From contig CAWBCT010000005.1 of NCBI GenBank assembly GCA_963787445.1, positions 17,800-49,799 on the forward strand: a stretch of 32,000 nt of DNA. The letters run 5' to 3'. The notes beneath the pieces were generated by a model that was not told the origin of the DNA, searched no databases, and saw nothing but the letters and a program-made list of their open reading frames with translations. Within the stretch, counting starts at the first letter, position 1. Every line of letters starts with the position of its first letter. This document shows, piece by piece, positions 1 through 16,161 of the stretch. Source of the stretch: an uncultured archaeon. Its GTDB lineage: Archaea; Micrarchaeota; Micrarchaeia; Micrarchaeales; CABMGC01. A program made the position numbers and the translations under genes.

Positions 1-660
1 GTAGCGCCGCTGCACCGCCCAGCTACCGAAGATGTCGGGGATGCCGCAGCGCGGGAACATGCGCACGAAGGTCTGCGTGCGGGCCGAGTGCAGGTGCGTC
101 CAGACGCCGTCGATGCAGGGCGAGTTCGCCGACAGGGCGAGCAGATACGGCAGGTAGGCGCGCATGGCGTCGCAGACGGCGATCGCCCGGTCGATGCCGC
201 GGATGCCGATGTGGATGTGCTGGCTCCAGGTGTTGTTGCGCCAGGCGACGTACTTGAGCTTGTCCTCGACGGCGTGATAGTGCGGCGTGTCGATGATGCG
301 CTGGTCCTGCCAGGGCGAGAAAGGGTGCGTGCCGCTGGCGCCCAGCGTGTAGCCCTGGTCGCGGGCGTGGGCAAAGAGGGCGAGGCGGCGCGCGACGATG
401 TCGCGCGCCGCCTCGCCGAACGACTCGCACCGGGGCGTGGCGATCTCGATCTCGCTCGAGATCAGCTCGCCGAGGATGCGCTCCCGCAGCTCCGCCGGGG
501 CGCTGTCACGCAGCAGCTCGAAGGCGCCGGTGAGGGCGAGGCTGCCCGGGTCGAGGATCTGGTACTCCTCCTCGAGGCCGATCGTGAAATCGGTCGAGGT
601 CGCAAAGCGTTCCTCGACCTGGGCGAGGTAGGTGTCGGGATCGGACAGCACGGTCGGCAC
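1..660 (-). CDS. Carboxylate-amine ligase, YbdK / glutamate-cysteine ligase family 2 (GCS2); first 220 codons, 3' end runs off the window
   Basis: Own translation of the minus strand from GTG at 660-658, open to position 1. It is absent from the ORF track because there is no stop in the window. Sequence: VPTVLSDPDTYLAQVEERFATSTDFTIGLEEEYQILDPGS...ELISSEIEIATPRC...GASGTHPFSPWQDQRIIDTPHY...NTWSQHIHIGIRG...LALSANSP. The FxIGxEEE, SEIEIxT and GTHPF blocks are typical of GCS2/YbdK. Track ORFs 23..430(-) and 88..924(+) are shadow frames. Confidence 0.8.
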   Translation of the reverse strand, partial: MPTVLSDPDTYLAQVEERFATSTDFTIGLEEEYQILDPGSLALTGAFELLRDSAPAELRERILGELISSEIEIATPRCESFGEAARDIVARRLALFAHARDQGYTLGASGTHPFSPWQDQRIIDTPHYHAVEDKLKYVAWRNNTWSQHIHIGIRGIDRAIAVCDAMRAYLPYLLALSANSPCIDGVWTHLHSARTQTFVRMFPRCGIPDIFGSWAVQRRY

Positions 661-689
661 AGTATACCCGCGGGCCAATGGCAAGAAGT

Positions 690-733
690 GGGGCGGCCGG
701 CGGCGCGCCTGGCGGCGCGCCGCCGGCCGCCCC
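690..733 (-). terminator. Perfect 20-bp GC inverted repeat (stem-loop) after the corrinoid-protein gene; probable intrinsic terminator
   Basis: ggggcggccggcggcgcgcc (690-709), loop tggc, ggcgcgccgccggccgcccc (714-733). It lies 39 nt past the TAG at 772-774. On the sense strand it is followed by CACTTCTTGCC, only a weak U-tract. Confidence 0.45.
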
Positions 734-771
734 GAGAGGCGTTGCCGGCCTTACTGGCGGCGCTTGCCGGT

Positions 772-1437
772 CTAGGCCACGCCCAGCAGGGTCTTGGCGG
801 CCACCACGGCCTCGATGGCGTCCTCGGCGTAGCCGTCGGCGCCGATCTCGTCGGCCCAGGCGCGGGTCGTGGGGGCGCCGCCGATCATGACCTTGATCTG
901 CTCGCGCAGACCGGCGGCCTTTAAGGCCTCGATGGTCTTGGCCTGGTTGGGCATGGTGGTGGTCAAAAGAGCGGAGAGCAGCAGCAGGTCGGGCTTGACG
1001 GCCTGGCAGGTGGCGACGAAGGCCTCGGGGGCCACGTCGCAGCCCACGTCGGTGACCTCAAATCCGGCCGCTGAGAGCATGCTGCAGACGATCGTCTTGC
1101 CGATCTCGTGGATGTCGCCGGCGACCGTGCCGGCGACGGCGATGCCGGTCGCCTTGCGGCCCTCCTTGGAGGCGTCTAAGGCGGGCTGCAGGACCCTCAC
1201 GGCGGCCTTCATGGCCTCGGCCCCCTGGACCAGCTCGGGCAGGAAGAACTCGCCTTTGCCGAAGAGGTCGCCGACCTCCTCGATGCCCTTGACGAAGCCC
1301 TTGTCTAAGATGTCGGCCGCAGAGAGGCCCATGTCGAGGCCTTTCTGGGCCAGGACGGCGGCGGTGTCGTCCTCGCCGTCGATCACTGCTTGGGCCATCT
1401 GGGAGTAGATCTCGTCGGTCACCAGGTCCTCCTTCAC
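772..1437 (-). CDS. Corrinoid (cobalamin-binding) protein of methyltransferase systems (MtbC/MtmC/MtaC-like)
   Basis: 221-aa ORF. It has an N-terminal helical B12-cap region and a Rossmann B12-binding domain with the DxHxxG motif (GDIHEIG), SALLTTT and MIGGAP. The likelier start is the internal GTG at 1422, which is preceded by AAGGAGG. The track start is GTG at 1437. Confidence 0.85.
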   Translation of the reverse strand: MKEDLVTDEIYSQMAQAVIDGEDDTAAVLAQKGLDMGLSAADILDKGFVKGIEEVGDLFGKGEFFLPELVQGAEAMKAAVRVLQPALDASKEGRKATGIAVAGTVAGDIHEIGKTIVCSMLSAAGFEVTDVGCDVAPEAFVATCQAVKPDLLLLSALLTTTMPNQAKTIEALKAAGLREQIKVMIGGAPTTRAWADEIGADGYAEDAIEAVVAAKTLLGVA

Positions 1438-1715
1438 GCACTACTTCCGTCAGCGATGACTTCTGGAGGCGCGCGCGCCGCGCGCGCCGGCAAGAAGCTT
1501 GAGTCTCGGTGCGTCCCCACGGCCACCCGTGCCCGTCTGAACGCCGACTCAGGCTACCGAAGGCGGCGGGGCTCTGCAACCTGACCCGCCCGCGACTTGC
1601 GCCGACCTGACAGTTCGCTAACATTACGCTCCGGTCTACGATGGCGCTCCGGCACAATGCGGGCGGGTGGATCCCGCCGGCGGCACGGTCGCGACCGGTC
1701 AAGGAGGGGGACCAC

Positions 1716-2333
1716 GTGAAACTCAGCCTCGTTCCGCAGGAGCGGGAGTACTTCCGCCTGTTCTCGGAGTTCGCCGCCACGCTCGATCAGGCCGCCCAGC
1801 TTCTGGCCAGCCTCATGAGCGACTTCTCTGCTCTCAAGAGCACGGCGCGCCAGATGGTCGAGCTCGAGCACGTCGGCGACAAGATCGTGCACGACATCGT
1901 CAAGCGCCTCAACAAGACCTTCATCACGCCCCTCGACCGCGAGGACATCTACGATCTCGCCGCGACCCTCGACGAGGTCCTCGACAGCATCGAGGCGGCC
2001 GTCGACATGATGCTCCTCTACCGCATCGCGGCGCCCGCGCAGCACGCGGTCGAGCAGTCGGCCGTGATCGCCAAGCAGACGGCCGTGCTGCGCCTGGCGA
2101 TCGACAGCCTCGAGAAGCGCAAGGGGCTCAACGATCACTGGATCGAGGTCAACCGGCTCGAGAACGACGGCGACCGGCTGTACCGCGACGCCGTCGCCGA
2201 GCTCTTCGACGGCGACATGAAGTGCACCGACATCATCAAGTGGAAGGACATCTACAGCACGCTCGAGCACGCCATCGACGATTGTGAGCACGTCGCCAAC
2301 ATCATCGAGAGCATCGTGCTCAAGAACACCTGA
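1716..2333 (+). CDS. DUF47 / PhoU-like phosphate-transport regulator (YkaA-type Pit accessory protein)
   Basis: Translation VKLSLVPQEREYFRLFSEFAATLDQAAQLL...ELEHVGDKIVHDIVKRLNKTFITPLDREDIY...ENDGDRLYRDAVAELF...KDIYSTLEHAIDDCEHVANIIESIVLKN is typical of DUF47. GTG at 1716 is preceded by AAGGAGGGGG (1701-1710). The stop overlaps the pit start (TGATG at 2331-2335). Confidence 0.85.
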   Translation: MKLSLVPQEREYFRLFSEFAATLDQAAQLLASLMSDFSALKSTARQMVELEHVGDKIVHDIVKRLNKTFITPLDREDIYDLAATLDEVLDSIEAAVDMMLLYRIAAPAQHAVEQSAVIAKQTAVLRLAIDSLEKRKGLNDHWIEVNRLENDGDRLYRDAVAELFDGDMKCTDIIKWKDIYSTLEHAIDDCEHVANIIESIVLKNT

Positions 2334-3319
2334 TGTTCCTGCTGATCGTCATCGTGGCGGTCGCTCTGGCGTTCGACTTCACCAACGGCTTCCACGACTC
2401 GGCCAACGCCATCGCCACGTCGATCTCGACGCGCGCCCTCTCGCCGCGGGTCGCGCTGCTCATGGCCGCCGTGCTGAACATGGTCGGCGCCTTCGTCAGC
2501 CAGAACGTGGCCAAGACCGTGGGCAAGGGCATCGTGACCTTGCCCACCGACTCACAGACGGTCGTGCTGGCCGCCCTGATCGGCGCCATCTGCTGGAACC
2601 TGGTCACCTGGTACCTCGGCCTGCCCTCCAGCTCGTCGCACGCCCTCATCGGCGGCCTCGTCGGCGCCACCCTCGTCGCGGTGGGTGCCAGCGGCGTGGA
2701 ATGGAGCGGCATCTGGCACAAGGTCGTCGTGCCCATGATCTCTTCGCCGCTGGTCGGCCTGCTGGTCGCGTTCCTGCTCATGAACCTCCTCCTGCTCCTC
2801 GTCTTTCGCTGGTCGCCGCGACCCGTGAACCGCACCTTCCGGGCCCTCCAGCCGGTCTCCGCCGGGGCGGTCGCCCTCGCCCACGGCATGAACGACGCCC
2901 AGAAGACCATGGGCGTGATCTGGCTGGCGCTGATCACCTCGGGCCACCTGTCGAAGACCGCCCCGATCCCCACCTGGGTGATCCTGGTGGCCGCGTCGTC
3001 GATCGCCTGCGGCACCTACTTCGGCGGCTGGCGCATCATCCGCACGCTCGGCACGAAGGTCATCCACCTCGACCCGATCCACGGCTTCGCCGCCGAGACG
3101 AGCTCCGCGGCCGTCATCTGGACGGCCAGTGTCCTCGGCTACCCGATCTCCACGACACAGACCATCACGGCCTCGATCATGGGCGCCGGCACGACCGGCG
3201 GGCTGTCCGCCGTGAAGTGGGGCGTGGCCGGCAACATCGTCTGGGCCTGGGTCCTCACCATCCCCGCCGCCGGCCTCGTGGCGGCCGGCGCCTACTTCCT
3301 CATCCATCTCCTCCACTGA
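2333..3319 (+). CDS. pit: Inorganic phosphate transporter, PiT (PHO4) family
   Basis: 328-aa polytopic membrane protein. It shows the duplicated PiT signature GFHDSANAIATSISTRAL near the N-terminus and AHGMNDAQKTMG in the second half. It is translationally coupled to the DUF47 gene. Confidence 0.9.
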   Translation: MFLLIVIVAVALAFDFTNGFHDSANAIATSISTRALSPRVALLMAAVLNMVGAFVSQNVAKTVGKGIVTLPTDSQTVVLAALIGAICWNLVTWYLGLPSSSSHALIGGLVGATLVAVGASGVEWSGIWHKVVVPMISSPLVGLLVAFLLMNLLLLLVFRWSPRPVNRTFRALQPVSAGAVALAHGMNDAQKTMGVIWLALITSGHLSKTAPIPTWVILVAASSIACGTYFGGWRIIRTLGTKVIHLDPIHGFAAETSSAAVIWTASVLGYPISTTQTITASIMGAGTTGGLSAVKWGVAGNIVWAWVLTIPAAGLVAAGAYFLIHLLH

Positions 3320-3450
3320 CGGCCGCCAACTTTGACTTCACGAGCGCCTGTGCAGTAGCGTTAATCGATTCCCGTCCCGAACGTTCATCCCCCCGCCGCG
3401 CGAGCTCGCGTCGGCGCCGCCAGTAGCCCCCCAGGGCAGTCGAGGTGACT

Positions 3451-4860
3451 ATGAGAATCCGCATGATCGAGCCGGAACCGGCCGACATGAACGTCTACAG
3501 CATGGTGCAGATGGTGAGGCTCGGACTGCCGATCATCGGCGCCACGCTCAAGGCCGCCGGTCACGACGTCAAGATCTACAACTCCAACATCGCGCCGATC
3601 GACTGGAACGACGTGTACGCCGCCGATCTCGTCGGCATCTCCACCACCACCTCGACCGTCACCGAAGGGTATCGGTTCGCCGAACAGTGCCGCGAGCGCG
3701 GCATCCCGGTCATCATGGGCGGCTCGCACGTCACCTTCATGGCCGACGAGGCCCTCCAGCACACCGACTTCGTCGCTCGCGGCGAGGGTGGCGAGCGGCT
3801 CATGATCGAGCTCGTCGCCGCGCTCGAGTCGGGGAGCCCGTTCGACGCCATCCAGGGCCTGTCGTTCACGCGCGACGGCGTGGCGGTGCACAACGAGACG
3901 CGCGGGCAGTGCACCGTGCTCGACGAGCTGCCGTTTCCCGACCTCTCGCTCATCCACGGCTACGAGAACATGAAAACGACGCCGATCATGACGAGCTGGG
4001 GCTGCCCCTTCCACTGCAACTTCTGCTCGGTCACCGCCATGTTCGGCCGCAAGTACCGCTTCCGCAGCGCCGAGAACATCATCGCCGAGCTCAAACAGCG
4101 CCAGCCCCGCAAGATCTTCTTCTACGACGACAACATCGCCGCCGACAAGAAGCGCCTCAAGGAGCTGTTGCGGCTCATGATCGCCGAAGACATCGTCGTG
4201 CCCTGGTCGGCCCAGATGCGCACCGACGTGGTGCGCGACCCCGAGCTGCTCGACCTCATGCGTCGATCCGGCTGCAACCGCGCCTACCTCGGCCTCGAGT
4301 CGGTCAACCAGGCGACCCTCGACTCCTTCGACAAGCACCAGAGCGTCGACGACATCGTCCAGGCCATCCGCATCCTGCACGAGTACGGCATCGCCTCGCA
4401 CGGCATGTTCATGCTGGGCGCCGACACCGACACCAAGGAGTCGCTGCGCGAGACCGTCAAGTTCGCCATGAAGAACCACATCGACACGATCCAGCTCGCG
4501 GCCCTGACGCCGCTGCCCGGCACGCCGCTCTTCGAAGAGCTCGACGCGGCCGGACGCATCTTCGAGAAGCAGTGGCACCTCTACGACGCCCAGCACGTGG
4601 TCTTCGAACCGGCCAACATGACCGCCTACGAGCTGCAGCTCGAGGCCCTGCGCGGCTACATGAAGTTCTACTCGCTGCGCCAGTGGGCCAAGTACTTCTT
4701 CACCTTCCGCTTCACCAAGCTGCTCTTCCAGAGCTGGGGCTGGTGGATCATCCGCATGTGGCGCAAGAACAAGGCCAATCAGGCCTTCATGCAGTCGCTC
4801 AAGAAGCTGCCGCGCGCCCACGGCCAGCAGCTCGCCCAGACGTCCGACTCAAAGCGCTGA
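3451..4860 (+). CDS. B12-binding-domain radical SAM protein (class B rSAM), specific function unknown
   Basis: The N-terminal Rossmann-like B12-binding region is LPIIGATLKAAGHDV...GISTTTST...VIMGGSHVT. The radical SAM cluster motif CPFHCNFC sits in SWGCPFHCNFCSV. A TIM-barrel core follows (YLGLESVNQATLD). The C-terminal Trp/Phe-rich basic tail is KYFFTFRFTKLLFQSWGWWIIRMWRKNK. ATG at 3451 has GAGG 5 nt upstream. The track start is GTG at 3445. Confidence 0.85.
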   Translation: MRIRMIEPEPADMNVYSMVQMVRLGLPIIGATLKAAGHDVKIYNSNIAPIDWNDVYAADLVGISTTTSTVTEGYRFAEQCRERGIPVIMGGSHVTFMADEALQHTDFVARGEGGERLMIELVAALESGSPFDAIQGLSFTRDGVAVHNETRGQCTVLDELPFPDLSLIHGYENMKTTPIMTSWGCPFHCNFCSVTAMFGRKYRFRSAENIIAELKQRQPRKIFFYDDNIAADKKRLKELLRLMIAEDIVVPWSAQMRTDVVRDPELLDLMRRSGCNRAYLGLESVNQATLDSFDKHQSVDDIVQAIRILHEYGIASHGMFMLGADTDTKESLRETVKFAMKNHIDTIQLAALTPLPGTPLFEELDAAGRIFEKQWHLYDAQHVVFEPANMTAYELQLEALRGYMKFYSLRQWAKYFFTFRFTKLLFQSWGWWIIRMWRKNKANQAFMQSLKKLPRAHGQQLAQTSDSKR

Positions 4861-4915
4861 GCGCCCGCCGGCGGCAGCGGCCGCGGCGCGGCTTGCGCCG
4901 GCCGGCGAGCCGTGG

Positions 4916-5539
4916 TCAGCCGGCGAGCTCGACGATCTCGTAGACGACGAGCGTCACGTACACCGCGACGAGCGCGACGCTGGCCAGCAGCACGATGCGG
5001 CGGCGGCGCTGGGTCCACAGAAACAGCGCGCCGGCCGTCACGACGGCCATCTTGACGAGCGCCGCCGGCACGAACCCGAAGCGCAGGAAGAGCGCCATGA
5101 TGGCGTTGGCCTCGGTCGCCCCCAGGGCGAGCGCGCGCCGCGTGAGCAGCGCGTCCTCGAGATTGAGCAGCCACAGCGCGACGAGCGCGCCGCTGACGGC
5201 GAGCGCCTGCCAGCGCGGCGCCGGCGCCGCGACCGTCGTCGCGCAGACGCAGGCCGGCGCCAGCGCAAGACCCGCTCCCGGCACGTACGGCACGACCGAG
5301 ACGCGGCCGCAGTCGGGGCAGGTGTGCACGACGGCGAGGCCGGCTCCCTGAGGCTCGAGGCGCGGCGCCGGTCGCAGGCGCCGCTCGGGGCCGGGATAGG
5401 CGGGCAGGGTGCGAGCGCGCCGCTCCCGCCTGAGCTCGGCGCCGCGCAGCGCAGCCGACAACCTCTGGTCGACCCCGGGGTCGACGAAGACCACCGTGCT
5501 CATCGTGCCGATCGTGGCGCGGGCCACCGCGGGCCACAC
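4916..5539 (-). CDS. Membrane protein with C-terminal DUF5658-like domain and an N-terminal Cys-containing cytoplasmic region
   Basis: 207-aa ORF. The C-terminal half LWLLNLEDALLTRRALALGATEANAIMALFLRFGFVPAALVKMAVVTAGALFLW...VALVAVYVTLVVY has 3 predicted TM helices. It also carries the (L)N..D..LT..AL..GA.EAN pattern that I associate with DUF5658. The N-terminal part contains CPDCG...C.C. The start is uncertain (GTG 5539 or ATG 5503). Confidence 0.55.
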   Translation of the reverse strand: MWPAVARATIGTMSTVVFVDPGVDQRLSAALRGAELRRERRARTLPAYPGPERRLRPAPRLEPQGAGLAVVHTCPDCGRVSVVPYVPGAGLALAPACVCATTVAAPAPRWQALAVSGALVALWLLNLEDALLTRRALALGATEANAIMALFLRFGFVPAALVKMAVVTAGALFLWTQRRRRIVLLASVALVAVYVTLVVYEIVELAG

Positions 5540-5639
5540 GCGTGGGACGTCGTGATCACGTCGTCACCCCCTCATCGCGCACTGTATGCCCAGGGCGTGC
5601 CGGATGCCAACAGGGCGCGGCGTTGGCGTCGCCGGGCGC

Positions 5640-5765
5640 TTGTAAAGGCGATGGGGCGATGGTACGGTACCCCGGACCTTCGCTGGAGCCATCGGGGGTC
5701 GTTTTCTGGGAACTGTCGCATCGGGCGGCAACGGGCGCTCACCTCGTGGGTGCGAAGACCGAGTC
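5640..5765 (+). promoter_or_regulatory. Structured 5' leader of the NlpC/P60 gene; candidate ydaO-type (cyclic-di-AMP) riboswitch
   Basis: About 250 nt of non-coding leader. The stretch CGCUGGAGCCAUCGGGGGUC...GGGCGCUCACCUCGUGGGUGCG resembles the ydaO blocks GAGC-GGGGGAC and GCUAACCUCGUAAGCG. Only part of the motif was matched by eye. Confidence 0.3.
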
Positions 5766-5790
5766 GTCGTACCCCGCAAGGAGGCGATGC

Positions 5791-6804
5791 ATGAAGCGCA
5801 ATCGCAGACTCTTCCTCGTCGCACTCGCCGCCCTCCTCGTCCTCCCCTTCGCCCTTCCCTCCGCCGCCTCCGCCGACACCGTCGCCCAGAAACGCGCCCA
5901 CGCGCGGGCCATCATGGGCGAGCTCGCCACGCTCGACGTCAAGATGGAGAAGGTCGTCGAGCGCTACGACGCGGCGACCGGCAAGCTGGCCACCATCAAC
6001 GCGAGCGTCGCCAAGAACCAGCGCACCCTGGCCCTGACGCGCTACAACCTGCAGATGGCCAAGACCCAGCTCCAGAACCGCGTCGTGGCCATGTACAAGC
6101 AGCGGCCCGTCGAGCTGCTCGACGTGATGCTCGCCACCAAGAGCTTCTCCTCGATGGTCGACCAGCTCGACCTGCTCGACCGGGTGGGCACCAGCGACTC
6201 CACCATGGTCGACTCGATCGGCGACTATCAGACGACGATCGTGGCCACCCAGAAGACCCTCGTGACCGACCGCACGGCCGCCGAACAGCTCGTCGCCCAG
6301 CGCGCCACCGAAAAGGCCGGGGTCGAAAGCGCCCTGGCGGCGCGACAGTCGATGCTGCGCGGCGTCAAGGCGCAGATCGCCCAGCTCGTCGCCCAGCAGG
6401 CCCAGGCGGCCAAGCAGGCCGCCCAGAAGCAGGGCGCCGTGCTGCCGATCGGCCCCATCAACGCCGACCACAGCAGCGTGGTGGCCTTCGCCGAGAGCTT
6501 CGTGGGCAAGGTGCCGTACGTGTGGGGCGGCTCTTCGCCCGCCGGCTTCGACTGCTCGGGCTTCACGATGTACGTCTACTCCAACTTCGGCGTGAGCCTG
6601 CCGCACAATGCGGCCGCTCAGCAGGCCTGTACGACGCCGGTACCCAGCGGCCAGGAGCAGCCCGGCGACCTCGTCTTCTTCGGCTCGCCGGCCTACCACG
6701 TCGGCCTCTACGTCGGCGGTGGCAGCATGGTCAACGCGCCGCACACCGGCGCCTACGTCAGCTACGGCTCCGTCGCCGGCGCAGCGGGGTTCGGCCGGCC
6801 CTGA
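5791..6804 (+). CDS. Secreted NlpC/P60 (C40) peptidoglycan endopeptidase with N-terminal coiled-coil (CwlO/RipA-like)
   Basis: ATG at 5791 follows AAGGAGG (5778-5784). The signal peptide is MKRNRRLFLVALAALLVLPFALPSAASA. About 200 aa of heptad-like coiled coil follow. The C-terminal catalytic domain is VPYVWGGSSPAGFDCSGFTMYVY...GDLVFFGSPAYHVGLYVGGGSMVNAPHTG (Cys-His-His). The track ORF start at 5542 is an upstream extension. Confidence 0.9.
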   Translation: MKRNRRLFLVALAALLVLPFALPSAASADTVAQKRAHARAIMGELATLDVKMEKVVERYDAATGKLATINASVAKNQRTLALTRYNLQMAKTQLQNRVVAMYKQRPVELLDVMLATKSFSSMVDQLDLLDRVGTSDSTMVDSIGDYQTTIVATQKTLVTDRTAAEQLVAQRATEKAGVESALAARQSMLRGVKAQIAQLVAQQAQAAKQAAQKQGAVLPIGPINADHSSVVAFAESFVGKVPYVWGGSSPAGFDCSGFTMYVYSNFGVSLPHNAAAQQACTTPVPSGQEQPGDLVFFGSPAYHVGLYVGGGSMVNAPHTGAYVSYGSVAGAAGFGRP

Positions 6805-6815
6805 GACCTCGCCCG

Positions 6816-6836
6816 GCCGCGCCCCACGGGCGCGGC
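6816..6836 (+). terminator. GC stem-loop just after the NlpC/P60 stop
   Basis: gccgcgccc-cac-gggcgcggc forms a 9-bp perfect stem, 12 nt after the TGA at 6802-6804. There is no U-tract, so confidence is modest. Confidence 0.3.
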
Positions 6837-6940
6837 GCCGACCCCGTCACAGCCTCGCTTCATCGCTCAAGGGTAAACATCTGCGCGCACCCGCCGATTA
6901 TGAAGGTGAACCCGCTGTCGGCAGACGGAGATGACGCGAC

Positions 6941-8032
6941 GTGAAGACGGTAGACGAGCTGCTCCACGAGATGGTCACGCGCACCGCCTCCGACCTTCAC
7001 ATCAAGGCCGGCAGCCCCCCGGTGGTGCGCGTCGACGGCGATCTGCACCTGCTCGACGAGCCCGTGCTTTCGCCCGAAGACACCAAGGATGCCGCCGCCT
7101 CGATCATGACCGACAAGCAGATCCGGCGCTTCAGCGAGCACAACGAGATCGACTTCGCCTACTCGGCGCCGGCCATCGGCCGCTTCCGCGTGAACATCTA
7201 CCGCCAGCGCGGCAGCATCTCGGTCGCCATGCGCCAGGTGGCGACGCAGATCCCCTCGTTCGAGGAGCTGCACCTGCCCGAGGTCATCAAGCGCCTGGCG
7301 CTCGAGCCCCGCGGCCTGCTGCTGGTGACGGGCACCACGGGGTCGGGCAAGACGACCACCCTCGCCGCCATGATCGACCACATCAACAACACCATGCGCA
7401 AGCACATCGTGACGATCGAAGACCCCATCGAGGTGCTGCACAAGGACCGCAAGGCGATCATCAACCAGCGCGAGATCGGCCTCGACACCGAGTCGTACGA
7501 GTCGGCGCTGAAGTACGTGCTGCGCCAGGACCCCGACGACATCCTCATCGGCGAGATGCGCGACGTCGAGACCGTCTCGGCGGCCCTCACCGCCGCCCAG
7601 ACCGGTCACTTCGTGATGAGCACGCTGCACACCATCGACGCCACCGAGACCATCAACCGCATCATCGACTTCTTCCCGCTGCACCAGCAGAAGCAGGTGC
7701 GCATCATGCTGGCCGGCACGTTGCGCGGCATCATCTCGCAGCGCCTGCTGCCGCGGGCCGACGGCCAGGGCCGGGTGCCGGCCATCGAGGTCATGGTGAT
7801 GACCAGCCGCATCCGCGACTTCGTGCTCGACGCCGACCAGACCTCGGCGATCGGCCAGGCCATCAAAGAGGGCGAGTTCTACGGCATGACGACCTTCGAC
7901 CAGGCGCTGCTGAGCCTCTACGAGCAGGGTCTGATCACCCTGCACGACGCCGCCCAGGTGGCCAGCAACCCGCACGACTTCAAGCTGCTCGTGCAGGCCC
8001 AGGGGCACGACGTCAGCCTGATGACCTTCTAG
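6941..8032 (+). CDS. pilT: Type IV pilus retraction (twitching motility) ATPase PilT
   Basis: 363 aa, GTG start. Motifs seen: ASDLHIKAGSPP, Walker A GTTGSGKTTT, Asp box HIVTIEDPIE, Walker B DDILIGEMRD and His box TGHFVMSTLHT. The length and the C-terminal AxxNP region are PilT-like rather than PilB-like. Confidence 0.9.
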   Translation: MKTVDELLHEMVTRTASDLHIKAGSPPVVRVDGDLHLLDEPVLSPEDTKDAAASIMTDKQIRRFSEHNEIDFAYSAPAIGRFRVNIYRQRGSISVAMRQVATQIPSFEELHLPEVIKRLALEPRGLLLVTGTTGSGKTTTLAAMIDHINNTMRKHIVTIEDPIEVLHKDRKAIINQREIGLDTESYESALKYVLRQDPDDILIGEMRDVETVSAALTAAQTGHFVMSTLHTIDATETINRIIDFFPLHQQKQVRIMLAGTLRGIISQRLLPRADGQGRVPAIEVMVMTSRIRDFVLDADQTSAIGQAIKEGEFYGMTTFDQALLSLYEQGLITLHDAAQVASNPHDFKLLVQAQGHDVSLMTF

Positions 8033-8127
8033 AAGGGCGAAAGCGACCCGCCCGGCGCTGCCGGTCGGGCGCCGGCGCCGCGAACTCAGACGGACTCGAG
8101 CGCCGCCGCCGGGCGGCGCCCCCCGGG

Positions 8128-8811
8128 CTACTGCAGGACCTTGCGGCTCTCGAGATGCAGGTCGACCTTACGCTTGATGCGCTGCAGTGCGTTGTCGACG
8201 GTCTTGCAGTCGCAGTCGAGCTGGCGAGCGATCTTCTCGTACGACAGGCCCTGCAGGTACAGGCGCAACACGCGGCTCTCGAGGTTGGAGAGCAGGCGCG
8301 TGAGGCAGTGCTTGAGGCTCTGCACCTCTTCGGCGGAGATCACCTGGTTGACCGGGTCGTTGACCGACGAGCCCGGCAGGATGTCGGCCAGGCTGCATTC
8401 GCTGTCGTCGCCGGCGTCGCCGGGGGTATGGCTGAACGACAGGTAGCCGTTGAGCGGCACGTGCTTCTGACGGGTGGCGGTCTTGATGGCGGTGATGATC
8501 TGGCGCGTGATGCACAGCTCGGCGAAGCTGCGAAACGACGCCTGACGGTCGTCGCGGTAGTCGCGCACCGCCTTGTACAGACCGACCATGCCCTCCTGGA
8601 TCAGGTCTTCGGAGTCGCCGCCGGCGAGGAAGTACGAGCTGGCCTTGAGCCGCACGAACTGGTGGTAGCGCAGGATCAGGGCGTTGAGGGCGCTCTGGTT
8701 GCCGCGGCGGTAGGAGTTGACGAGGGCGAGATCGGAACTCTCTGAGTGGACCTGAGGGTTAGAAAGACGACCAGCCGATCGGCTGGTGTCGGCCTGTCGC
8801 CGCTGCGTCAT
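8128..8811 (-). CDS. sigH: RNA polymerase sigma factor, Bacillus SigH (Spo0H) type
   Basis: 227 aa. The block LIQEGMVGLYKAVRDYRDDRQASFRSFAELCITRQIITAIKTATRQKHVPLN is near-identical in pattern to B. subtilis SigH (IVQEGMIGLYKSIRDF...FAELCITRQIITAIKTATRQKHIPLN). The C-terminal part has LSNLESRVLRLYLQGLSYEKIA...VDNALQRIKRKV. It lies in the conserved cysS-rlmB-yacP-sigH context. Confidence 0.88.
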   Translation of the reverse strand: MTQRRQADTSRSAGRLSNPQVHSESSDLALVNSYRRGNQSALNALILRYHQFVRLKASSYFLAGGDSEDLIQEGMVGLYKAVRDYRDDRQASFRSFAELCITRQIITAIKTATRQKHVPLNGYLSFSHTPGDAGDDSECSLADILPGSSVNDPVNQVISAEEVQSLKHCLTRLLSNLESRVLRLYLQGLSYEKIARQLDCDCKTVDNALQRIKRKVDLHLESRKVLQ

Positions 8812-8848
8812 GCCGTCTGACCCCCCGAGCTGAGCCTGAGTGGCGCGA

Positions 8849-9364
8849 CTAGCCGCCCTCCCGCCTCAGGCGTTCCAGCTTGCGCCAAGTCTCAAGGTCA
8901 AGTTTATCCTCAAGTGTTGTCGGTATTGTACTGGTCTTCTCGTCGTTTGCAAGCTCTTTGTGGCTGACGCCGATCTCGGCGCCCAGCTCGCGAGGGGTCA
9001 TGCGACGCACGCCGGCCCGGGTCGCCGTACGCTGCACCTCGTAGTCGGCCGAAACGACGACGATGGCGGCGTCGGCCGGCTCGTCGGCGACCAGCCGGGC
9101 GATCATCTCGTCGGCCGACTGCGAACCGCCGGCGAAGCACACCTCGACCCGCGTGCCGGCCAGTCGCTCGCAGGTCGACCGGGGCTGCGAGTGGGCGTCG
9201 AAGACGAGGGTGACCTGGGCGCCGCGCAGGGCGGCGAAGCCGGCGAGCTGGTCGGCCAGCCAGCGGCGCCGGTCCTCGAGCTGCTCGAGCTGGAGGCCCG
9301 GGAACAGGGCGTGCAGGACGTTGTAGCCGTCGACGATGTAGGAGTCGTGAGCGCCCGCGGCCAT
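8849..9364 (-). CDS. yacP: NYN-domain ribonuclease YacP/Rae1 family
   Basis: 171 aa. Motifs seen: YIVDGYNVLH, VTLVFDA, VCFAGGSQSADEMI and VVVSADYEVQ. The ATG at 9364 is 5 nt after the rlmB stop (9369-9371). Confidence 0.85.
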   Translation of the reverse strand: MAAGAHDSYIVDGYNVLHALFPGLQLEQLEDRRRWLADQLAGFAALRGAQVTLVFDAHSQPRSTCERLAGTRVEVCFAGGSQSADEMIARLVADEPADAAIVVVSADYEVQRTATRAGVRRMTPRELGAEIGVSHKELANDEKTSTIPTTLEDKLDLETWRKLERLRREGG

Positions 9365-9368
9365 GCCG

Positions 9369-10134
9369 TCAGGCTCCCCCGCGCAGACCGGGCTCGCGCC
9401 CGGGCGGCCGGGCGGCCGTGAGCGCCCGGCCCTGACGGCGCACCTCGTAGAGAAACAGGGCGGCGGCCACGCTCACGTTCAGGCTGTCGACCGGACCCTG
9501 CATGGGGATCGCGGCAAGCTCGTCGCAGGCGCGGCGCACCAGCGGGCGCAGCCCGCGGCCCTCCGCGCCGAACACCAGCACCACCTTGCCGGAGAGATCG
9601 AGGGCGTCGTAGGGGCGGCCGGCGTCGCCGGCCGCCCCGTACACCCAGTGTCCGGCTTGCTGGCACTCGGCCAGAAAGCCGGCCACGTTGGTGACGTGGG
9701 CGATGTCGAGATGCTCGGTGGCTCCCGCCGAAGCCTTGACCGCCGCCGGTGTGACCGCGGCCGAGCGGTGCCGGGGCAGCGCGAGGCCGCCGGCGCCGGC
9801 CCCCAGGGCGCTGCGCGCGATGGCGCCCAGGTTGCGGGGGTCGGTCACCTCGTCGAGCACGACGAGCAGGTCGCAGACCAGCAGCGCGCCCGGCGCGACG
9901 TACGGGTAGTCGCCCACCAGGCAGGCCACGCCCTGGTGCTCGTGGCTGCCGGTGAGCTGCTGCAGCTCGCGCGACTCCACCCGTTCGAAGCTCGACGCCC
10001 TGGGCTGCGCCTGCGCCCGCGACGACGTGGGCCGCGCCGGCGACGCCGTGGCCGGCCAGCCAGGCGGCGCCTTCGGGGGTCGCCACGAGCCTTCGCGGGC
10101 GGCGCTTCGCGCCGCCCGCGAAGGCCAGGCGCAC
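9369..10134 (-). CDS. rlmB: 23S rRNA 2'-O-ribose G2251 methyltransferase RlmB (TrmH/SpoU SPOUT family); N-terminal region disturbed as sequenced
   Basis: The SPOUT core is in frame 9369..9980: HQGVA, LDEVTDPRNLGAIARSA, VLVFGAEGRGLR and IPMQGPVDSLNVSVAAALFLYE. The SpoU_sub_bind-like N-terminus (GRQVVRLAFAGG...RRLVATPEG) is in the frame of track ORF 9103..10134. This implies a frameshift near ~10,005. No in-frame start lies upstream of the GR motif, and an in-frame TGA sits at 10165-10167. Confidence 0.75.
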
Positions 10135-10235
10135 GACCTGCCGGCCGTCAGAGCCAGTCCACGGTCAACGGCGGGAGCGGCGGCCTGCGGCTCCCGCCGC
10201 TCCCGCGGCGCCCCTGCGAGTCGTCGCGGCGCCCA

Positions 10236-11819
10236 TCAGCCCCTGCGCACGACCTGCGTGCCGGCCGGCGTGTCGCGCACCTCGAACCCGGCGGCCACGA
10301 GGCGGTCGCGCAGGGCGTCGGCGCCGGCCCAGTCCTTCTGCGCCCGCAGGTGGTCGCGCAGCCGGCAGGCATAGGTGGCATCGCCGCACGACAGACGCTC
10401 GTCGACGAGCTCGGCCAGATCGTCCCAGCGGCCCTCCGCCGAAAGGCGCGCGGCCGGCGGCAGCGGCACGTCGTCGGTGGCGCAGACCTCGCCGTCGGCG
10501 GCGACCGCCTGCGACGCGGCGGCCCGGCGGCCGCTCGGCGCGCCGCTCGGCGACACCGACAGCTCGTCGTCGGGCAGGGTGATGCACAGGTCGTCGAGGC
10601 ACGAGACGAGGAGGTCCTCGACGCCTTCGAGGGTGTCCGTGTCGGCGGCGTGACCGGCGGCATCGGTGGCGCCGACGTAGCGAAACAGCTCGCGGCCCAG
10701 GCCGAACAGCTCGCCGAGCGCGGCGGCGGTGTTCAGGTCGTCGTCCATGTGCTCGGCAAAGGCCGATCCGGGCATGGTCGAGCGCGGCCCGCAGCTCGGC
10801 GGCGTCGTGGGTCTCGCCGCGACCGGGGTTGTCGGCCCGGAAGCTGGCCGTGCGCACCGCCTCGCGCAGGCGCTCGTAGGCCGCCGCGGCCTCGTCGAGC
10901 TTCTCCAGTGAGAACTCGAGCGGGCTGCGGTAATGGGTCGTCAGGAAGTAGGTGAGCACGACCGGCGCCGGGTAGCGCTCGAGCACCTCGCGCAGCAGGA
11001 AGATGTTGCCGACCGACTTGGCCATCTTCTCGCCCTCGGCGCGGATCATGCCGTTGTGCATCCAGACGCGGGCGAAGGGCAGGCCGGCGGCCTCGGCCTG
11101 GGCGATCTCGTTCTCGTGGTGGGGGAAGATCAGGTCGCGGCCGCCGCCGTGGATGTCGAAGCCGGCCCCCAGGTAGCGCAGGCCCATGGCCGAGCATTCG
11201 ATGTGCCAGCCCGGGCGGCCCTTGCCCCATGGGCTGTCCCAGGATGGTCGCCTCTCCGGGCTTGGCCGCCTTCCACACACGAAGTCGAGCGGGTCGTCTT
11301 TGCCCGGCTCGGCCTCGACTCGCGTCTCTTCGGCGAGCTCGTCGATGCGCTGCCTGGACAGCTTGCCGTACTCGGGGAAGCTGCGCACGCGAAAGTAGAC
11401 GCTGCCCTGCGCCTCGTAGGCGTGGCCCGCGGCGATGAGCTGGCAGACGAGGTCGATGATCTCGGGGATGGTCTCGCTGGCCAGCGGCTCGACGTCGGCC
11501 GCGGCACGCCGAGCCGGTCGGTGTCGTCGAGATAGGCCTGCGCGTACTCGGCTGCGACGGCGACCGGCGAACGACCCTCGGCATCGGCCTTGGCGTTGAT
11601 CTTGTCGTTGACGTCGGTGATGTTCTCGACCAGCGTGACGTGGTAGCCGCGCGAGGTCAGCCAGGCCCGCAGCACGGCGAAGACGACATACGGGCGGGCG
11701 TTGCCGACGTGCACGTAGTTGTAGACCGTAGGACCGCAGGCGTAGATGCCCACCTTGCCGGCGTCGCGCGGGACGAGCTCCTCTTTGCGCTGGGTGAGTG
11801 AGTTGAAGAGCCTGATCAC
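10236..11819 (-). pseudogene. cysS: Cysteine--tRNA ligase CysS, interrupted as sequenced by about 4 single-base frameshifts
   Basis: The N-terminus is in ORF 11130..11819 (GIYACGPTVYNYVHVGNARPYV). The middle is in the 821-aa ORF frame (VEPLASETIPEIIDLV..., [45 protein letters not shown]). The C-terminus is in ORF 10236..10775 (FAEHMDDDLNTAAAL...DALRDRLVAAGFEVRDTPAGT). Frame changes occur at ~11,497, ~11,277 and ~11,248 (a compensating pair around the conserved LWKAAKPGE) and ~10,762. The GTG start overlaps the gltX stop (GTGA, 11816-11819). Confidence 0.85.
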
Positions 11820-12320
11820 CGTCGGTCTCCTTCAGTCGTGTCGGGGGGCGGCGTGGCCGGAGGCGTGGCGGCCGGCGGCGCGCCGGCCAGCGGGGCGGCC
11901 GGCGTGGCGACCGGCGTGGCGTCGCCGGTAGCCGCCGCGAGGCGCTCGAGGGTCTCGCCGGCGGGCAGCGCGGCCAGCACGAAGTGCAGCTCGGGACCGT
12001 GTTCGCGGCCGGTGAGCGCCCGGCGCAGCGGCATGAGCAGCTCGCGGGGGCCGTAACCGCTCTGCTTGCCCTGCCGGCGGTAGTCGGCCAGCAGGCCGCG
12101 AGCCTCGTCGGCGGTAAGGTAGGGCTGCGGCGCCGAGCGGCGCAAGCCAGCAAAGAGGGTGAGGCGGTCGCGGGCGGCGGCCAGCGCGGCCAGCGTCTCG
12201 GCGCGGGGGCGGGCCGGTCGAGCACCGCGGCGACGAGCCGCGGCACCTCGCAGTAGCGCTCGAGCGAAGACTTGAGGGCGGCGGCGAGCGCCGCCACGGC
12301 CGGCACCGGGGTGCCGGCCG
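11816..12320 (-). pseudogene. gltX: Glutamate--tRNA ligase GltX, C-terminal (anticodon-binding) fragment only
   Basis: ORF 11816..12625 frame: AETLAALAAARDRL...LLMPLRRALTGREHGPELHFVLAALPAGETLERL. This matches the conserved GltX C-terminal motif (PLRvALTGr.hGPEL...LG.e..l.RL). The upstream part (LKSSLERYCEVPRLVAAVLD) is in another frame, with the shift at ~12,205-12,215. Homology stops at ~12,320, where dprA-like sequence begins. Confidence 0.6.
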
Positions 12321-12324
12321 CCGG

Positions 12325-12630
12325 CGCGCCAGCAGCTCGCTCCGGCCGATGAGGGACAGGACCGATGGCGCATCGTCGATGGCGGAGAGAAGCCGGATAG
12401 CCTGCCTCGCCCAGGACGACGAGCCGGCCGCCCAATCGCGCCAGTCCGGCCAGCTCCCGCTCCGCCGTCGCGCTGGCGCAGATGGCGAGCGGCCGGGTAC
12501 GCCCGCCGCGCCTGGCAAGCTCGGGCAACGCCGCCAGGGCCGCTTCGGCGCCGCCAAAGCGGGCCAGGAGCTGACGAAAGGTGACGGTCCGACGTTCTCG
12601 CAGCGCGCCAGGCGGAGCGAGGCAAGTCAT
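12325..12630 (-). pseudogene. dprA: DNA-processing protein DprA/Smf, N-terminal ~100 codons only (alphaproteobacterial type), with one frameshift
   Basis: From ATG at 12630: ...VTFRQLLARFGGAEAALAALPELARRGGRTRPLAICASATAERELAGLARLGGRLVVLGEAGYP. After a 1-nt insertion near 12,394 it continues LLSAIDDAPSVLSLIGRSELLA. This is the typical DprA N-terminal region up to the start of the Rossmann domain. The rest of the gene is missing. Confidence 0.6.
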
Positions 12631-12723
12631 TCGCGGTCGCTGAGGTGAAGCCCAGGCATCGGGGGAGAATGAAGAAGTCCGAGAGTAACTGTCAATTATG
12701 TCTATCGAAAGTTGTAACTCGAC

Positions 12724-13346
12724 TTACGCTTTCGGCTTGCCGAGCTGGATCTTGGATTCCTTTCCGGCCAGCAGACGCCGGATATTCTGCCAGTGGCGCA
12801 GCCAGACCAGCACGGCGATGAGAATGGCAACCTCCTTCAACTGGCGGGTCGAGAGGAAATAGGCGGCCACCGGCGCCGAGGCGAAGGAGAGCAAGGCGGC
12901 CAGCGACGAAAAGCGGGCGGTGAAGGCGACGAGGAGCCAGACCGCGCAGGCGATCAGGCCGACGAAGAAGTTCAAGCCCAGCAGCACACCGAGACCAGTC
13001 GCCACGCCCTTGCCGCCCTTGAAGCCGAGCCATGCCGGGAAGAGATGGCCGATGAAAGCGGCGAGCTCCGGCGATGATCGCCATGTCAGGCCCCAATGTT
13101 GGCCGATCAGCACGGCCGCCGTGCCCTTGCCGCCATCGAGCAGGACCGTCGCCGCCGCCAATCCCTTGCGGCCGGTGCGCAGCACATTGGTGGCGCCGAT
13201 ATTGCCGGAGCCGATCTTGCGGATGTCGCCGAGGCCCGCGAGCCTGGTCAACACGAGGCCGAAGGGAATCGAGCCCAGCAGGTAGCCCAGCAGAGCGCCC
13301 AGATAGTACGGCCAAGTAACTGAAAGCTGCCCAGGAGCTCGGGCAT
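12724..13346 (-). CDS. plsY: Glycerol-3-phosphate acyltransferase PlsY (frameshift near the 5' end as sequenced)
   Basis: Track ORF 12724..13254 carries [30 protein letters not shown] and [12 protein letters not shown]. The conserved N-terminal [23 protein letters not shown] continues upstream in the same frame without a start codon. ATG at 13346 (MPELLGSF...) is in another frame. A 1-nt indel at the aaa/ttt run ~13,324 would join them. Confidence 0.85.
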
Positions 13347-13349
13347 GGC

Positions 13350-13500
13350 GCTAGGGCGAGGCCGTACCAGCTCCTCGCCCCTTCGACGGGGGCCCGCCGG
13401 GGTGGGGGTGGAGCCGAAAGTTCGAAGGCAACGCATTCTATCGCTCGTCGACCCCCTTCCGACCCTCCCCCGCAAGGGGAAGGAAGAGGTTGAGCGGGCG
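13350..13500. repeat. Intergenic GC-rich palindromic (REP-like) element between pyrC' and plsY
   Basis: Short hairpins gcccc-ttcgac-ggggc and ctcccccGCAAggggaag. It shares the motif ccggggtgggggtgg (13397-13411) with ccggggtgaggtggg at 27256-27270. Confidence 0.4.
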
Positions 13501-13511
13501 CGAGCGTGGGT

Positions 13512-14075
13512 TCACTGCGATACTCCGGCCGCGAAGACCGTGCGGCCATCGACGATGGTGCGCAGCACCCGGCCCCGCACCGGGCGGCCGTCGAAGGGGG
13601 AGTTCTTGGACTTGCTGCGGAAGCGGCCGACCTCGATATGACAATGCCGGTCAAGTTCGAACAGGAGAAGGTCCGCCGGCGCGCCCTTGGCGAGGCGGCC
13701 CTGGGGCAGGCCGAGGAATTGGGCCGGCGCTGCGGTCATCCGGCGCAGCAGCTCAATGAGCGACACTTCGCCCTTGTGATGCAACTCCAGGCTCAGGGCC
13801 AGCAGGGTTTCGAGGCCGATAATTCCGGGCGCTGCCTGGGCGAACGGCACGCGCTTTCGATTCCTGGTCGTAAGGGGCGTGGTCGCTGGCGATGCAGTCG
13901 ATGGTGCCGTCGGCGATCGCCGCGGCGACCGCCTTGTTGTCCGCCTCGGTTCGCAGCGGCGGCGACAGCTTGGCGAAGGTGCGGTAGTCGCCGACCGCGG
14001 TCTCGTCGAGAGCGAAATAGGCGGGCGCGGTGTCGCAGGTGACGGGAAGCCCGCGCGCCTTCCTCGCGCCACGGC
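13512..14075 (-). pseudogene. pyrC: Dihydroorotase PyrC, C-terminal ~185 codons only, with one frameshift
   Basis: Own translation: (A)RGLPVTCDTAPAYFALDETAVGDYRTFAKLSPPLRTEADNKAVAAAIADGTIDCIASDHAPYDQESK. After an extra base in the ttt/aaa run at ~13,857 it continues RVPFAQAAPGIIGLETLLALSLELHHKGEVSL...SKSKNSPFDGRPVRGRVLRTIVDGRTVF. The N-terminal ~55% of the gene is absent. Confidence 0.8.
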
Positions 14076-15830
14076 GGTCAAGTCGAGATTGCCGTCGAGC
14101 GCGTAATCGCCCGCCAGGTTGGCGTTGACCGCGTTCTGCAACTGGCTGGCGGTGGTGATCAGCGTATAGGCGCTGCCGTTGATGGTCAGACTCGGCGTTG
14201 CGCCCCCAAGGGTGATCGAGTCGCCCGTGCCGGTGATCAGATTGCCGCCGGTCCCGCCGTCGTTATAGAGGACATTGAGGTTGGTGCCGACGATGTTGGC
14301 GTTGACGTTGACGCTGTGATAGGCGTCGAGCGTCAGGGTGGTGTTGGCGCTCCAGGCGAGCGGGCTGTCGATATTGATATCGCCGACGCCGCTGGCATTG
14401 GCGATGCCCGGGCCGCTGGCCCCGGTGGCGGTGGTTTGCAAAGTGACGTTCGTTGTGGCCAGCGAGCCGTCGATGGTCGCGGCCGCGGCGGCGTCGACGG
14501 TCAAGTCCCAGGGGTCGAGCAGCCAGGTGCCCGCCTTGCCCTTGGGCGCGCCGGCATCGACCTTCGCGCCGTCGATATTCAAGATGTGGCCCGAGGTTTC
14601 GATGGACCCGCCGTCGCCGCCGAGCGCACCGCCCGTGGCCTTCGCCGAACCGACGAAGCTGTTGGTGCCGCCGATCACCGAGATCTTGCCGCCATTGCCG
14701 CTGATCTTGGCCGAGGCATCGAGCGTGGAGGCGGCATCGACCGCCACCGACGCGGTCTGCCAGCCGCCCACGGTGATGGCACCGCCGCCCGTGGCGCCCG
14801 AGGCATCGAGCTTGGCACCCGCGAGAGTGACCGCGCCGCTGCCGTCGAGCACGATCGCCCCGCCCTGCGATGTCAGCGAGTTGGCCTCGATCACCCCGGT
14901 GGCGTTGATCGCACCGCCCATCAAGGTGTTGGCCGCCTGCGCCGTCAGCAGCACCTTGCCGCCGCCGGCCTGGATCACGCCGCCCGCCTCGATCAGCGAC
15001 TGCACCGTCGCCGGGTTAACCTTCACCCCCAGCGACCCGCTGCCGGCCAGGGTCAGCGTCACCGCGTCGCCCGAGGCCAGCGCCACCGTGCCCAGATTGG
15101 CCTGGATCAGCCCAGTATTGGCGATATGCGGCGCCAGCAGTGCGACATAGCCGCCCGGGGCCGCCACGATGCTGCCGGCATTGGTCACGCTGCCGGTCGC
15201 CGTGCCGCGCTGGAATACGAGGGTGCCGTTCTGGAAGTCGGTGTCGGATATGTTCAGCGTCGAGGCGATCAGGCCGCCGACATTGACCTGCGCGCCGTCG
15301 CCGAACACGATGCCATTCGGGTTGATCAGGATCACCTGGCCGTTGGCGGTCAGCCGGCCCAGGATGACCGAGCCGTCCCCCGACAGAATGCGGTTGAGCG
15401 CGATCGAGCTGGTACCGGGCTGCACGAAGGTCACCCCGGCCTGGCTGCCGATATCGAAGCTCGACCAGTTGAGGCTGGCTGAATTGGTGGTCTGCGTCAC
15501 CGTCAACTGCGAACCAGACTGGCTGATCGTGGCATTGCCCGAGGTCAGCGCTTTGAAGACGGGCAGCTGGGTCGATGCCGGAGCCGAGTTCAGCACGTTC
15601 ATGACGCGCTGCTGGGCCGTCGTCTGAGCGCCACCGGCAATGGCCGGCGCGCCCGGCGCCAGCAGCAGCGCCGCCGCGGCCGAGACCAGGCCCGTGCGCG
15701 ACAGAAGCGCAGCGCGTCGCGACCGGCCGAAGCGCGGTGCGCAGGAATGAGCGGGAATGCTCGGGGACAGACGCTTCAACGAAACCGCGAACTTGGACAA
15801 ATCAATCGTGCAATCATTATTCCGAGCCAT
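14073..15830 (-). CDS. Two-partner-secretion exoprotein (TpsA; filamentous-hemagglutinin N-terminal TPS domain), 3'-truncated at ~585 codons
   Basis: ATG at 15830 is preceded by AGGAG. The long signal region ends ...AAAALLLAPGAPAIA. TPS-domain motifs are LNWSSFDIGSQAGVTF, ALNRILSGDGSVILGRLTANGQVILINPNGIVFG and QVNVGGLIASTLNISD. Beta-helical G/A/T-rich repeats follow. The sequence ends at ...LITTASQLQNAVNANLAGDYALDGNLDLTA, the usual lead-in to GLUG-type modules, where pyrC sequence begins. Track ORF 13512..15830 (772 aa) is a read-through fusion. Confidence 0.8.
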
Positions 15831-16161
15831 TCGACGCTCCTAATATGAATTCGTTTGACGACAATAATTTTTCAAATCCGGTCGCAAATTTACTTCGCGC
15901 GCAACTCACGCCGCCTCGCTACTCGTAAGGCGGATACAGTCGCAAACACAAGTAATGGTTTCCCCGCTTACGAGAATCCATTGCTATTTATTCGGATATA
16001 ACCCCAAGACCCAGGCGAAACGCCACTGAGACGCGACCATTTATTTGTTCTTGGCCGCGATATTACGCATTCCAGGCGCTGACATTCGTTATCGTTCCAA
16101 GAATCTTATGTTTCAATTGTCAAAATCGAGCGGCGGCCTCGCGCCGGCAGAATGTCGACGC
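15831..16161 (-). promoter_or_regulatory. AT-rich tpsB-tpsA spacer with probable internal promoter, SD and an imperfect hairpin
   Basis: This is the only clearly AT-rich stretch in the window (e.g. taatatgaattcgtttgacgacaataatttttcaaat, ttatttgttcttgg, aatcttatgtttcaattgtcaaaat). An inverted repeat ctcgtaaggcgg (15922-15933) / ccgcttacgag (15964-15974) is present. After the tpsB stop there is a weak hairpin cggcg-cgaggc-cgccg followed by cgatttt. Confidence 0.3.

Follow-up and report, generated by a model that had tools for sequence, protein, structure and literature searches.

The window, that is, the whole 32,000-nt stretch of DNA analysed here, aligns to independent contigs as three consecutive segments, A (1-12322), B (12323-14074, pyrC'-plsY-dprA') and C (14075-32000), and on these sequence comparisons its joins are almost certainly assembly artefacts, by which three unrelated bacterial populations were concatenated in a public metagenome contig. 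Each join splits two genes mid-ORF, gltX and dprA at the first and pyrC and tpsA at the second, and all four of these genes are found intact, with other neighbours, in independent assemblies. An earlier note, made from the sequence of the window alone, had described a single abrupt join near 12.3 kb, explained it as a chimeric contig produced by metagenome mis-assembly and not by biology, and warned that genomic context inferred across it was unsafe; both statements are borne out by the native contexts of every cut gene and by the abruptness with which identity ends there. The kind of artefact is already known, and it contains no new biology.

Two joins and the genes that they cut

The features on which the argument rests are the following.

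1-12322, no strand: segment A, probably from Thermoleophilia (a high-GC Gram-positive-type lineage) and collinear with the independent contigs L002 and L003
9372-11819, minus strand: rlmB and cysS, broken by window-specific indels, with cysS spread over three frames and rlmB over two
11816-12322, minus strand: gltX' fragment, codons ~347-515 of 515, with a frame break near 12203-12220 (tblastn with the GltX of L002)
12322-12323, no strand: junction 1 (A to B), a direct join with an overlap of at most 2 nt, without filler and without adapter (three-way alignment and adapter scan)
12323-14074, no strand: segment B, a 1,752-bp alphaproteobacterial fragment with at least four frame breaks; 87.7% nucleotide identity to L088-L091 and 83-84% to L092
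12323-12659, minus strand: dprA' fragment, codons 1 to ~113 of 380, frameshifted (tblastn with the DprA of L088)
12724-13347, minus strand: plsY, full length except that the first ~5 codons and the start codon are lost (Pfam G3P_acyltransf, NCBIfam TIGR00023; tblastn, residues 6-207)
13512-14073, minus strand: pyrC' fragment, codons ~252-436 of 436, with a frame break at ~13856 (Pfam Amidohydro_1, positions 264-345 of 345; tblastn)
13512-15602, minus strand: hybrid ORF TpsA::PyrC of 696 aa, almost certainly artefactual, annotated in the deposited contig as P0190 (Pfam TPS and Amidohydro_1)
14073-14075, no strand: junction 2 (B to C), a direct join; the PyrC frame reaches 14073, 100% identity to L093 starts at 14075, and there is no adapter
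14075-32000, no strand: segment C, from a Gram-negative genome, with tpsA'-tpsB, a giant ALTTAQ-repeat protein gene, a liv operon, an SDR gene and dpp genes
14075-15830, minus strand: tpsA' fragment, codons 1-585 of a 1012-aa two-partner-secretion exoprotein (Pfam TPS)
16162-17915, minus strand: tpsB (POTRA_2 and ShlB), which lies in three frames because of 1-nt insertions at 16559 and 17313; intact at 583 aa in L001
18061-24016, minus strand: giant ALTTAQ-repeat protein gene, the last ~137 codons put out of frame by a 1-nt insertion at 18491; the native protein has 1984 aa in L001

Base-level three-way alignment of the window, L002 and an alphaproteobacterial dprA places the first breakpoint at 12322/12323 (±2 nt), with at most 'CC' in common: the window follows L002 up to 12322, and the dprA track begins at 12321/12323. 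Identity to the A-lineage reference drops here from 98.9% over 12.3 kb to none, and because it vanishes at one position the join is not a matter of chance. The description in the earlier note of a DprA N terminus abutting the C-terminal third of GltX in low-complexity GC sequence proved accurate, since Pfam and tblastn matches on the minus strand place DprA at 12323 to ~12659 and GltX at 11816-12322, and the breakpoint falls inside the GC-rich run which that note had quoted. In gltX' the Pfam domain Anticodon_2 is matched over positions 93-140 of 141, and in dprA' the N-terminal HHH domain DprA_N is matched over positions 19-63 of 64 (~12450-12585). Near 12.3 kb the minus strand reads as protein only with hops between frames; both dprA' and gltX' hold internal frameshifts, in the case of gltX' with a window-specific 1-nt deletion at 12203, and for this reason the peptides cited in the earlier note lie in different frames. 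The native partners at junction 1 have a local similarity score of 16 versus 10±2.2 (p≈0.02), which is out of register and weakly above chance.

A second join, which the earlier note overlooked, lies 1.75 kb beyond the first, at 14074±1, where pyrC is fused to a cut-off tpsA. It was suspected because a 775-codon ORF (13515-15839) was found in Pfam searches to contain a TPS secretion domain followed only by the C-terminal end of an amidohydrolase. No similarity was found between the native partners at this junction. The view that everything to the right of the first join is one unit must therefore be abandoned, as segment B ends after only 1,752 bp, at 14074, where a third genome takes over.

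Taken together, the pattern is that of a chimeric contig. The flanks match different genomes, with identity ending abruptly at a single point; the native continuation of every flank is found elsewhere and is unlike that in the window; composition and gene-level taxonomy change at the join; and the breakpoints fall mid-gene, at arbitrary positions, with no mobile-element signature. No integrase or transposase domains were found in domain searches of the window, the tRNA scan returned no tRNA in the window, and the Rfam scan of the window gave zero matches. There are no direct repeats flanking the joins, no repeat family spans either of them, and a fuzzy search limited to the junctions found no adapter remnants at either.

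Sources of the three segments

Comparing the flanks separately, as had been advised, sends A to L002, B to alphaproteobacterial loci and C to L093 and L001. Look-ups of identical proteins had yielded independent contigs for each lineage. Segment A is covered by a single HSP (window 1-12327) to L002 (ENA ERZ25039480 contig_18119) at 98.9% identity, and this alignment ends inside the gltX of L002. Window positions 5834-12327 match L003 at 96.8%, and the short-read contigs L004-L007 match segment A at 96-99.6%. In two independent assemblies, the native locus reads TldD/PmbA, OPRT, a 213-aa protein, an Orn/Lys/Arg decarboxylase, gltX (515 aa), cysS, rlmB, yacP, sigH and pilT, and in L002 both rlmB (265 aa) and cysS (528 aa) are intact. 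The reference contigs carry frameshifts of their own, PhoU_div being split in L002 and gltX, cysS and TldD being broken in L003. The region of the NlpC/P60 gene (window 6000-7000) is hypervariable among strains of the A lineage, with 36-39 mismatches per 500 bp and many indels in L003.

The order of genes to the left of junction 1 is gltX'-cysS-rlmB-yacP-sigH, in which yacP is a YacP-type NYN gene by Pfam and NCBIfam. The earlier note had read this as a Firmicutes-style block with a Bacillus-type SigH; the gene order and the SigH-like sigma factor stand, but the implied organism probably does not, as the closest named relatives are Thermoleophilia or Actinomycetota MAGs and not Bacillota. The sigma factor passes the NCBIfam equivalogs NF006148 (258.5, above the cutoff of 208), NF006145 and NF006147, and scores below the cutoff of TIGR02859 spore_sigH (248 versus 294.8). 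On the native contig the OPRT gene is 2.3 kb away from gltX, and its product shares 93-94% identity with proteins of MAGs labelled 'Thermoleophilia bacterium'; the named homologues of GltX, at 63-67%, are from Thermoleophilia or Actinomycetes. On the strength of these two proteins, lineage A probably belongs to the Thermoleophilia (Actinomycetota), and the term 'Bacillota-type' fits the gene block and probably not the organism. The stretch from sigH to gltX' (sigH-yacP-rlmB-cysS-gltX', window 8128-12322; L002:2664-10684) presents a Bacillota-style block with a SigH-like sigma factor in a lineage whose close relatives are labelled Thermoleophilia; we found no relevant literature on SigH in Thermoleophilia.

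Segment B aligns to pyrC-plsY-dprA loci (L088-L091) over window positions 12304/12323 to 14061/14073. In its closest relatives the native locus is pyrB-pyrC(436 aa)-plsY-dprA(380 aa)-topA. That this gene order is common in alphaproteobacteria, from which the earlier note had described it, is confirmed by the best 80 alphaproteobacterial PlsY loci: plsY has pyrC immediately before it in 67 of them and dprA immediately after it in 48. All 80 of the best PlsY loci in species-representative genomes are alphaproteobacterial, and by this measure of relatedness segment B is alphaproteobacterial; the best PlsY match anywhere is 92%. In tblastn the composite, frameshifted DprA' peptide of the window had no match in the 80 alphaproteobacterial loci, and a clean query, the DprA of L088, was needed. 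The 26-kb contig L088 (GCA_035604155.1, DATNJA010000183.1) carries the typical alphaproteobacterial order pyrB-pyrC-plsY-dprA-topA in a MAG labelled 'Candidatus Udaeobacter sp.' (Verrucomicrobiota), and because all of the best PlsY relatives are Alphaproteobacteria this contig is probably mis-binned.

Segment C is 100% identical to L093 over 14075-15054 and 99.91% identical to L001 over 15184-32000, and its proteins are also recorded on a contig of 2,432,678 bp. The native tpsA encodes 1012 aa (contig of L001), and the genes behind it, seen in L093, are those of a thiolase, an IclR regulator and a sugar ABC transporter. Since C encodes the Omp85-type TpsB, it comes from an organism with an outer membrane; the replicons most similar to it in the liv operon, at ~70% identity, are those of Chelatococcus and Azospirillum, so that C is probably alphaproteobacterial too. 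We considered whether B and C could be contiguous in one genome, and rejected this because pyrC and tpsA are both cut and no B-type PlsY (at most 92% identity) occurs on C-lineage contigs. This absence, along with composition, suggests that B and C derive from separate genomes, the best reference for B reaching only 87.7% at the nucleotide level and 92% in PlsY.

Several further observations concern the contents of segment C. The secreted-type ALTTAQ protein (~1984 aa) contains 27 ALTTAQ repeats and weak matches to Peptidase_M10 and RTX, and lies directly downstream of the tpsB-tpsA neighbourhood. Between the genes for the liv substrate-binding protein and permease (window 27228-27346) there is a GC-rich, imperfect inverted repeat with 34-nt arms, 79% complementary, and 'GGGAGAGGG' motifs; it may be the REP-like element named in the earlier note, and the window showed no further copy of it. 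An NCBI/ENA contig of 11,740 bp, on which a thiolase variant, P0450 (404 aa; cluster of L093:2302-3516), is recorded, may hold the part of the C genome that junction 2 severed from the source contig.

Composition, proposed earlier as a means of telling the flanks apart, does so in part. Tetranucleotide profiles of A, B and C correlate best with the independent reference of their own lineage (0.98, 0.97 and 0.95, respectively, compared with 0.90-0.94 across lineages), but the contrast is modest and the GC content is ~68% in all three segments, so that chimera flags based on GC would fail here.

The deposited contig and the origin of the joins

The joined sequence is already on public record. 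One NCBI/ENA contig of 659,142 bp records the exact proteins of both A (PilT, PiT, SigH and DUF47) and C (LivM and DppF), and it carries the 696-aa protein P0190 (TPS and Amidohydro_1) and the 109-aa GltX stub P0511, both identical to translations of the window. C-type DppC and SBP proteins lie on it past the right end of the window, where C continues for at least 4.4 kb, and the cluster members listed for this contig include no native neighbour of any cut gene.

The distribution of sequence errors follows the joins. We define a difference in A as window-specific where L002 and L003 agree with each other and not with the window, and such differences increase towards junction 1: nine of the ten window-specific indel events in A lie in its last 2.3 kb, and all of them at 9.5-12.3 kb. 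Three of the five indels in C relative to L001 lie in its first 4.4 kb, at 16559-18491. For A and C combined, the enrichment near the joins has a binomial p of 3e-5. Frame-breaking single-base indels, several of them in homopolymers, cluster at 9.99-18.5 kb and have frameshifted rlmB, cysS, gltX', dprA', pyrC', tpsB and the 3' end of the ALTTAQ gene, while genes farther out are intact except for the dpp ATPase genes. The latter are shortened by single-base indels at 30969 and 31657 relative to L001 (DppF has 302 aa compared with 329 aa on the 2.43-Mb contig), which sets a background of roughly 0.15 indels per kb in the source contig, even at a distance from the joins. Right beside junction 2, 980 bp of C are error-free relative to L093, and for this reason a single unpolished read over 9.99-18.5 kb fits imperfectly; uneven polishing of a poorly supported path fits better.

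Three other accounts of the joins were weighed against mis-assembly of this kind. If the window were a construct made after assembly, by splicing or engineering, such as a synthetic test sequence composed of unrelated contigs, its abrupt breakpoints without homology would be explained, and the earlier note had entertained such a splice. The public 659,142-bp contig already carries the exact proteins of both sides as well as P0190 and P0511, which are possible only from the joined sequence; because they are in the deposit, the window was not spliced after assembly, and we regard this account as ruled out, with a probability close to nil. In short-read assemblies, the commonest route to chimeric contigs is the collapse of a repeat, here a sequence common to the genomes, such as a conserved gene, an IS element or an rRNA, inside which the assembler would have switched from one genome to another. 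Apart from its general frequency, this account can draw on the GC-rich, low-complexity sequence at junction 1 and on the weakly raised similarity score of the partners there. It is nevertheless very unlikely, and was rejected for want of any sequence common to the partners at the joins: the overlap is at most 2 nt at junction 1 and nil at junction 2, the joined genes (gltX with dprA, pyrC with tpsA) are unrelated, and no repeat family extends across either join.

The joins could also be genuine, in which case horizontal transfer or illegitimate recombination would have brought B and at least 22 kb of C into a living cell of lineage A. The physical presence of both joins in the deposited contig is compatible with this, as are the similar GC content on all sides and the modest tetranucleotide contrast. 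However, of the essential, single-copy gltX nothing but a 109-aa stub is left, and the cluster members listed for the contig include none of the genes upstream of the native gltX, while independent contigs of the A lineage hold the intact locus. The ORFs of four genes are interrupted, the joins bear no integrase, tRNA or target duplication, and a 1.75-kb piece from a third party between larger segments is not what integration leaves behind. Moreover, C is 99.9-100% identical to separately assembled genomes, and A does not reappear before the window ends or in at least the next 4.4 kb. This account would require a Thermoleophilia-like cell that had very recently gained, by illegitimate recombination, over 20 kb from an alphaproteobacterial donor (99.9% identity to the donor), along with a remnant of a third genome at the edge, and had lost its canonical gltX; we consider this extremely improbable.

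For the assembly artefact that we favour, we tentatively propose the following mechanism. The size of 659 kb, the single-base and homopolymer indels, and the naming of sister assemblies as 'contig_N' in the ERZ250394xx series hint at long reads, and the source assembly would accordingly be of the Nanopore/Flye type. A large soil project using Nanopore, metaFlye and Medaka (PMC12313526) has Flye-style contig names, as do the sister contigs. One or a few chimeric reads, or a low-coverage path in the graph, may then have been taken by the assembler as a bridge and have given rise to the path from A through B to C; the short B between A and C suggests concatenated fragments. Poor polishing of the bridge region would have left the cluster of single-base indels and, with it, frameshifts in every gene between rlmB and the ALTTAQ gene, both included, the latter at its 3' end.

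The value of the result is in quality control only. The 659-kb contig, which evidently belongs to a deposited assembly or MAG, almost certainly combines three or more organisms of two phyla; it is not safe to use whole and should be split at 12322/12323 and 14074/14075. Synteny, inference of horizontal transfer, taxonomy and metabolic reconstruction across 12.3-14.1 kb would be wrong, and the hybrid of TPS and amidohydrolase domains and the GltX stub, which are in all likelihood artefactual entries in protein databases, could pass for a novel domain architecture and a pseudogene.

Comparison with known assembly errors and genomic islands

Chimeric long reads arise where unrelated fragments are ligated or concatenated during Nanopore library preparation or sequencing. 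The arrangement of A, B and C is like that of such concatenated reads in its blunt, homology-free joins and its short middle piece of 1.75 kb, but unlike them in that adapter remnants are absent from both joins. There is also a resemblance to genomic islands and other horizontally transferred segments, in that foreign DNA meets host DNA at a sharp boundary. In contrast to these, the borders lack integration machinery and target-site features (no integrase, tRNA or direct repeats), essential genes are cut on both sides of both joins, and the sequence of the recipient never resumes, as C still continues at the right end of the window and occupies at least the following 4.4 kb.

Another close parallel is with the multi-phylum contigs that have been catalogued in assemblies made with metaFlye, metaMDBG and hifiasm-meta, where distinct phyla, and sometimes three or more organisms, are merged in one contig (10.1101/2025.04.22.649783). 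In long-read assemblies, contig paths may rest on a single read, unsupported indels corrupt ORFs, and multi-phylum chimeric contigs are detectable by shifts in gene-level taxonomy and composition (10.1101/2025.04.22.649783). The contig described here shares with the catalogued cases the joining of phyla in one long contig, the involvement of more than two organisms and the ORFs broken by indels (10.1101/2025.04.22.649783). It differs from them in that the diagnosis was reached from independent assemblies and not from the clipping of reads, and in that GC does not shift, so that the simplest of the flags applied to those cases (10.1101/2025.04.22.649783) would miss it.
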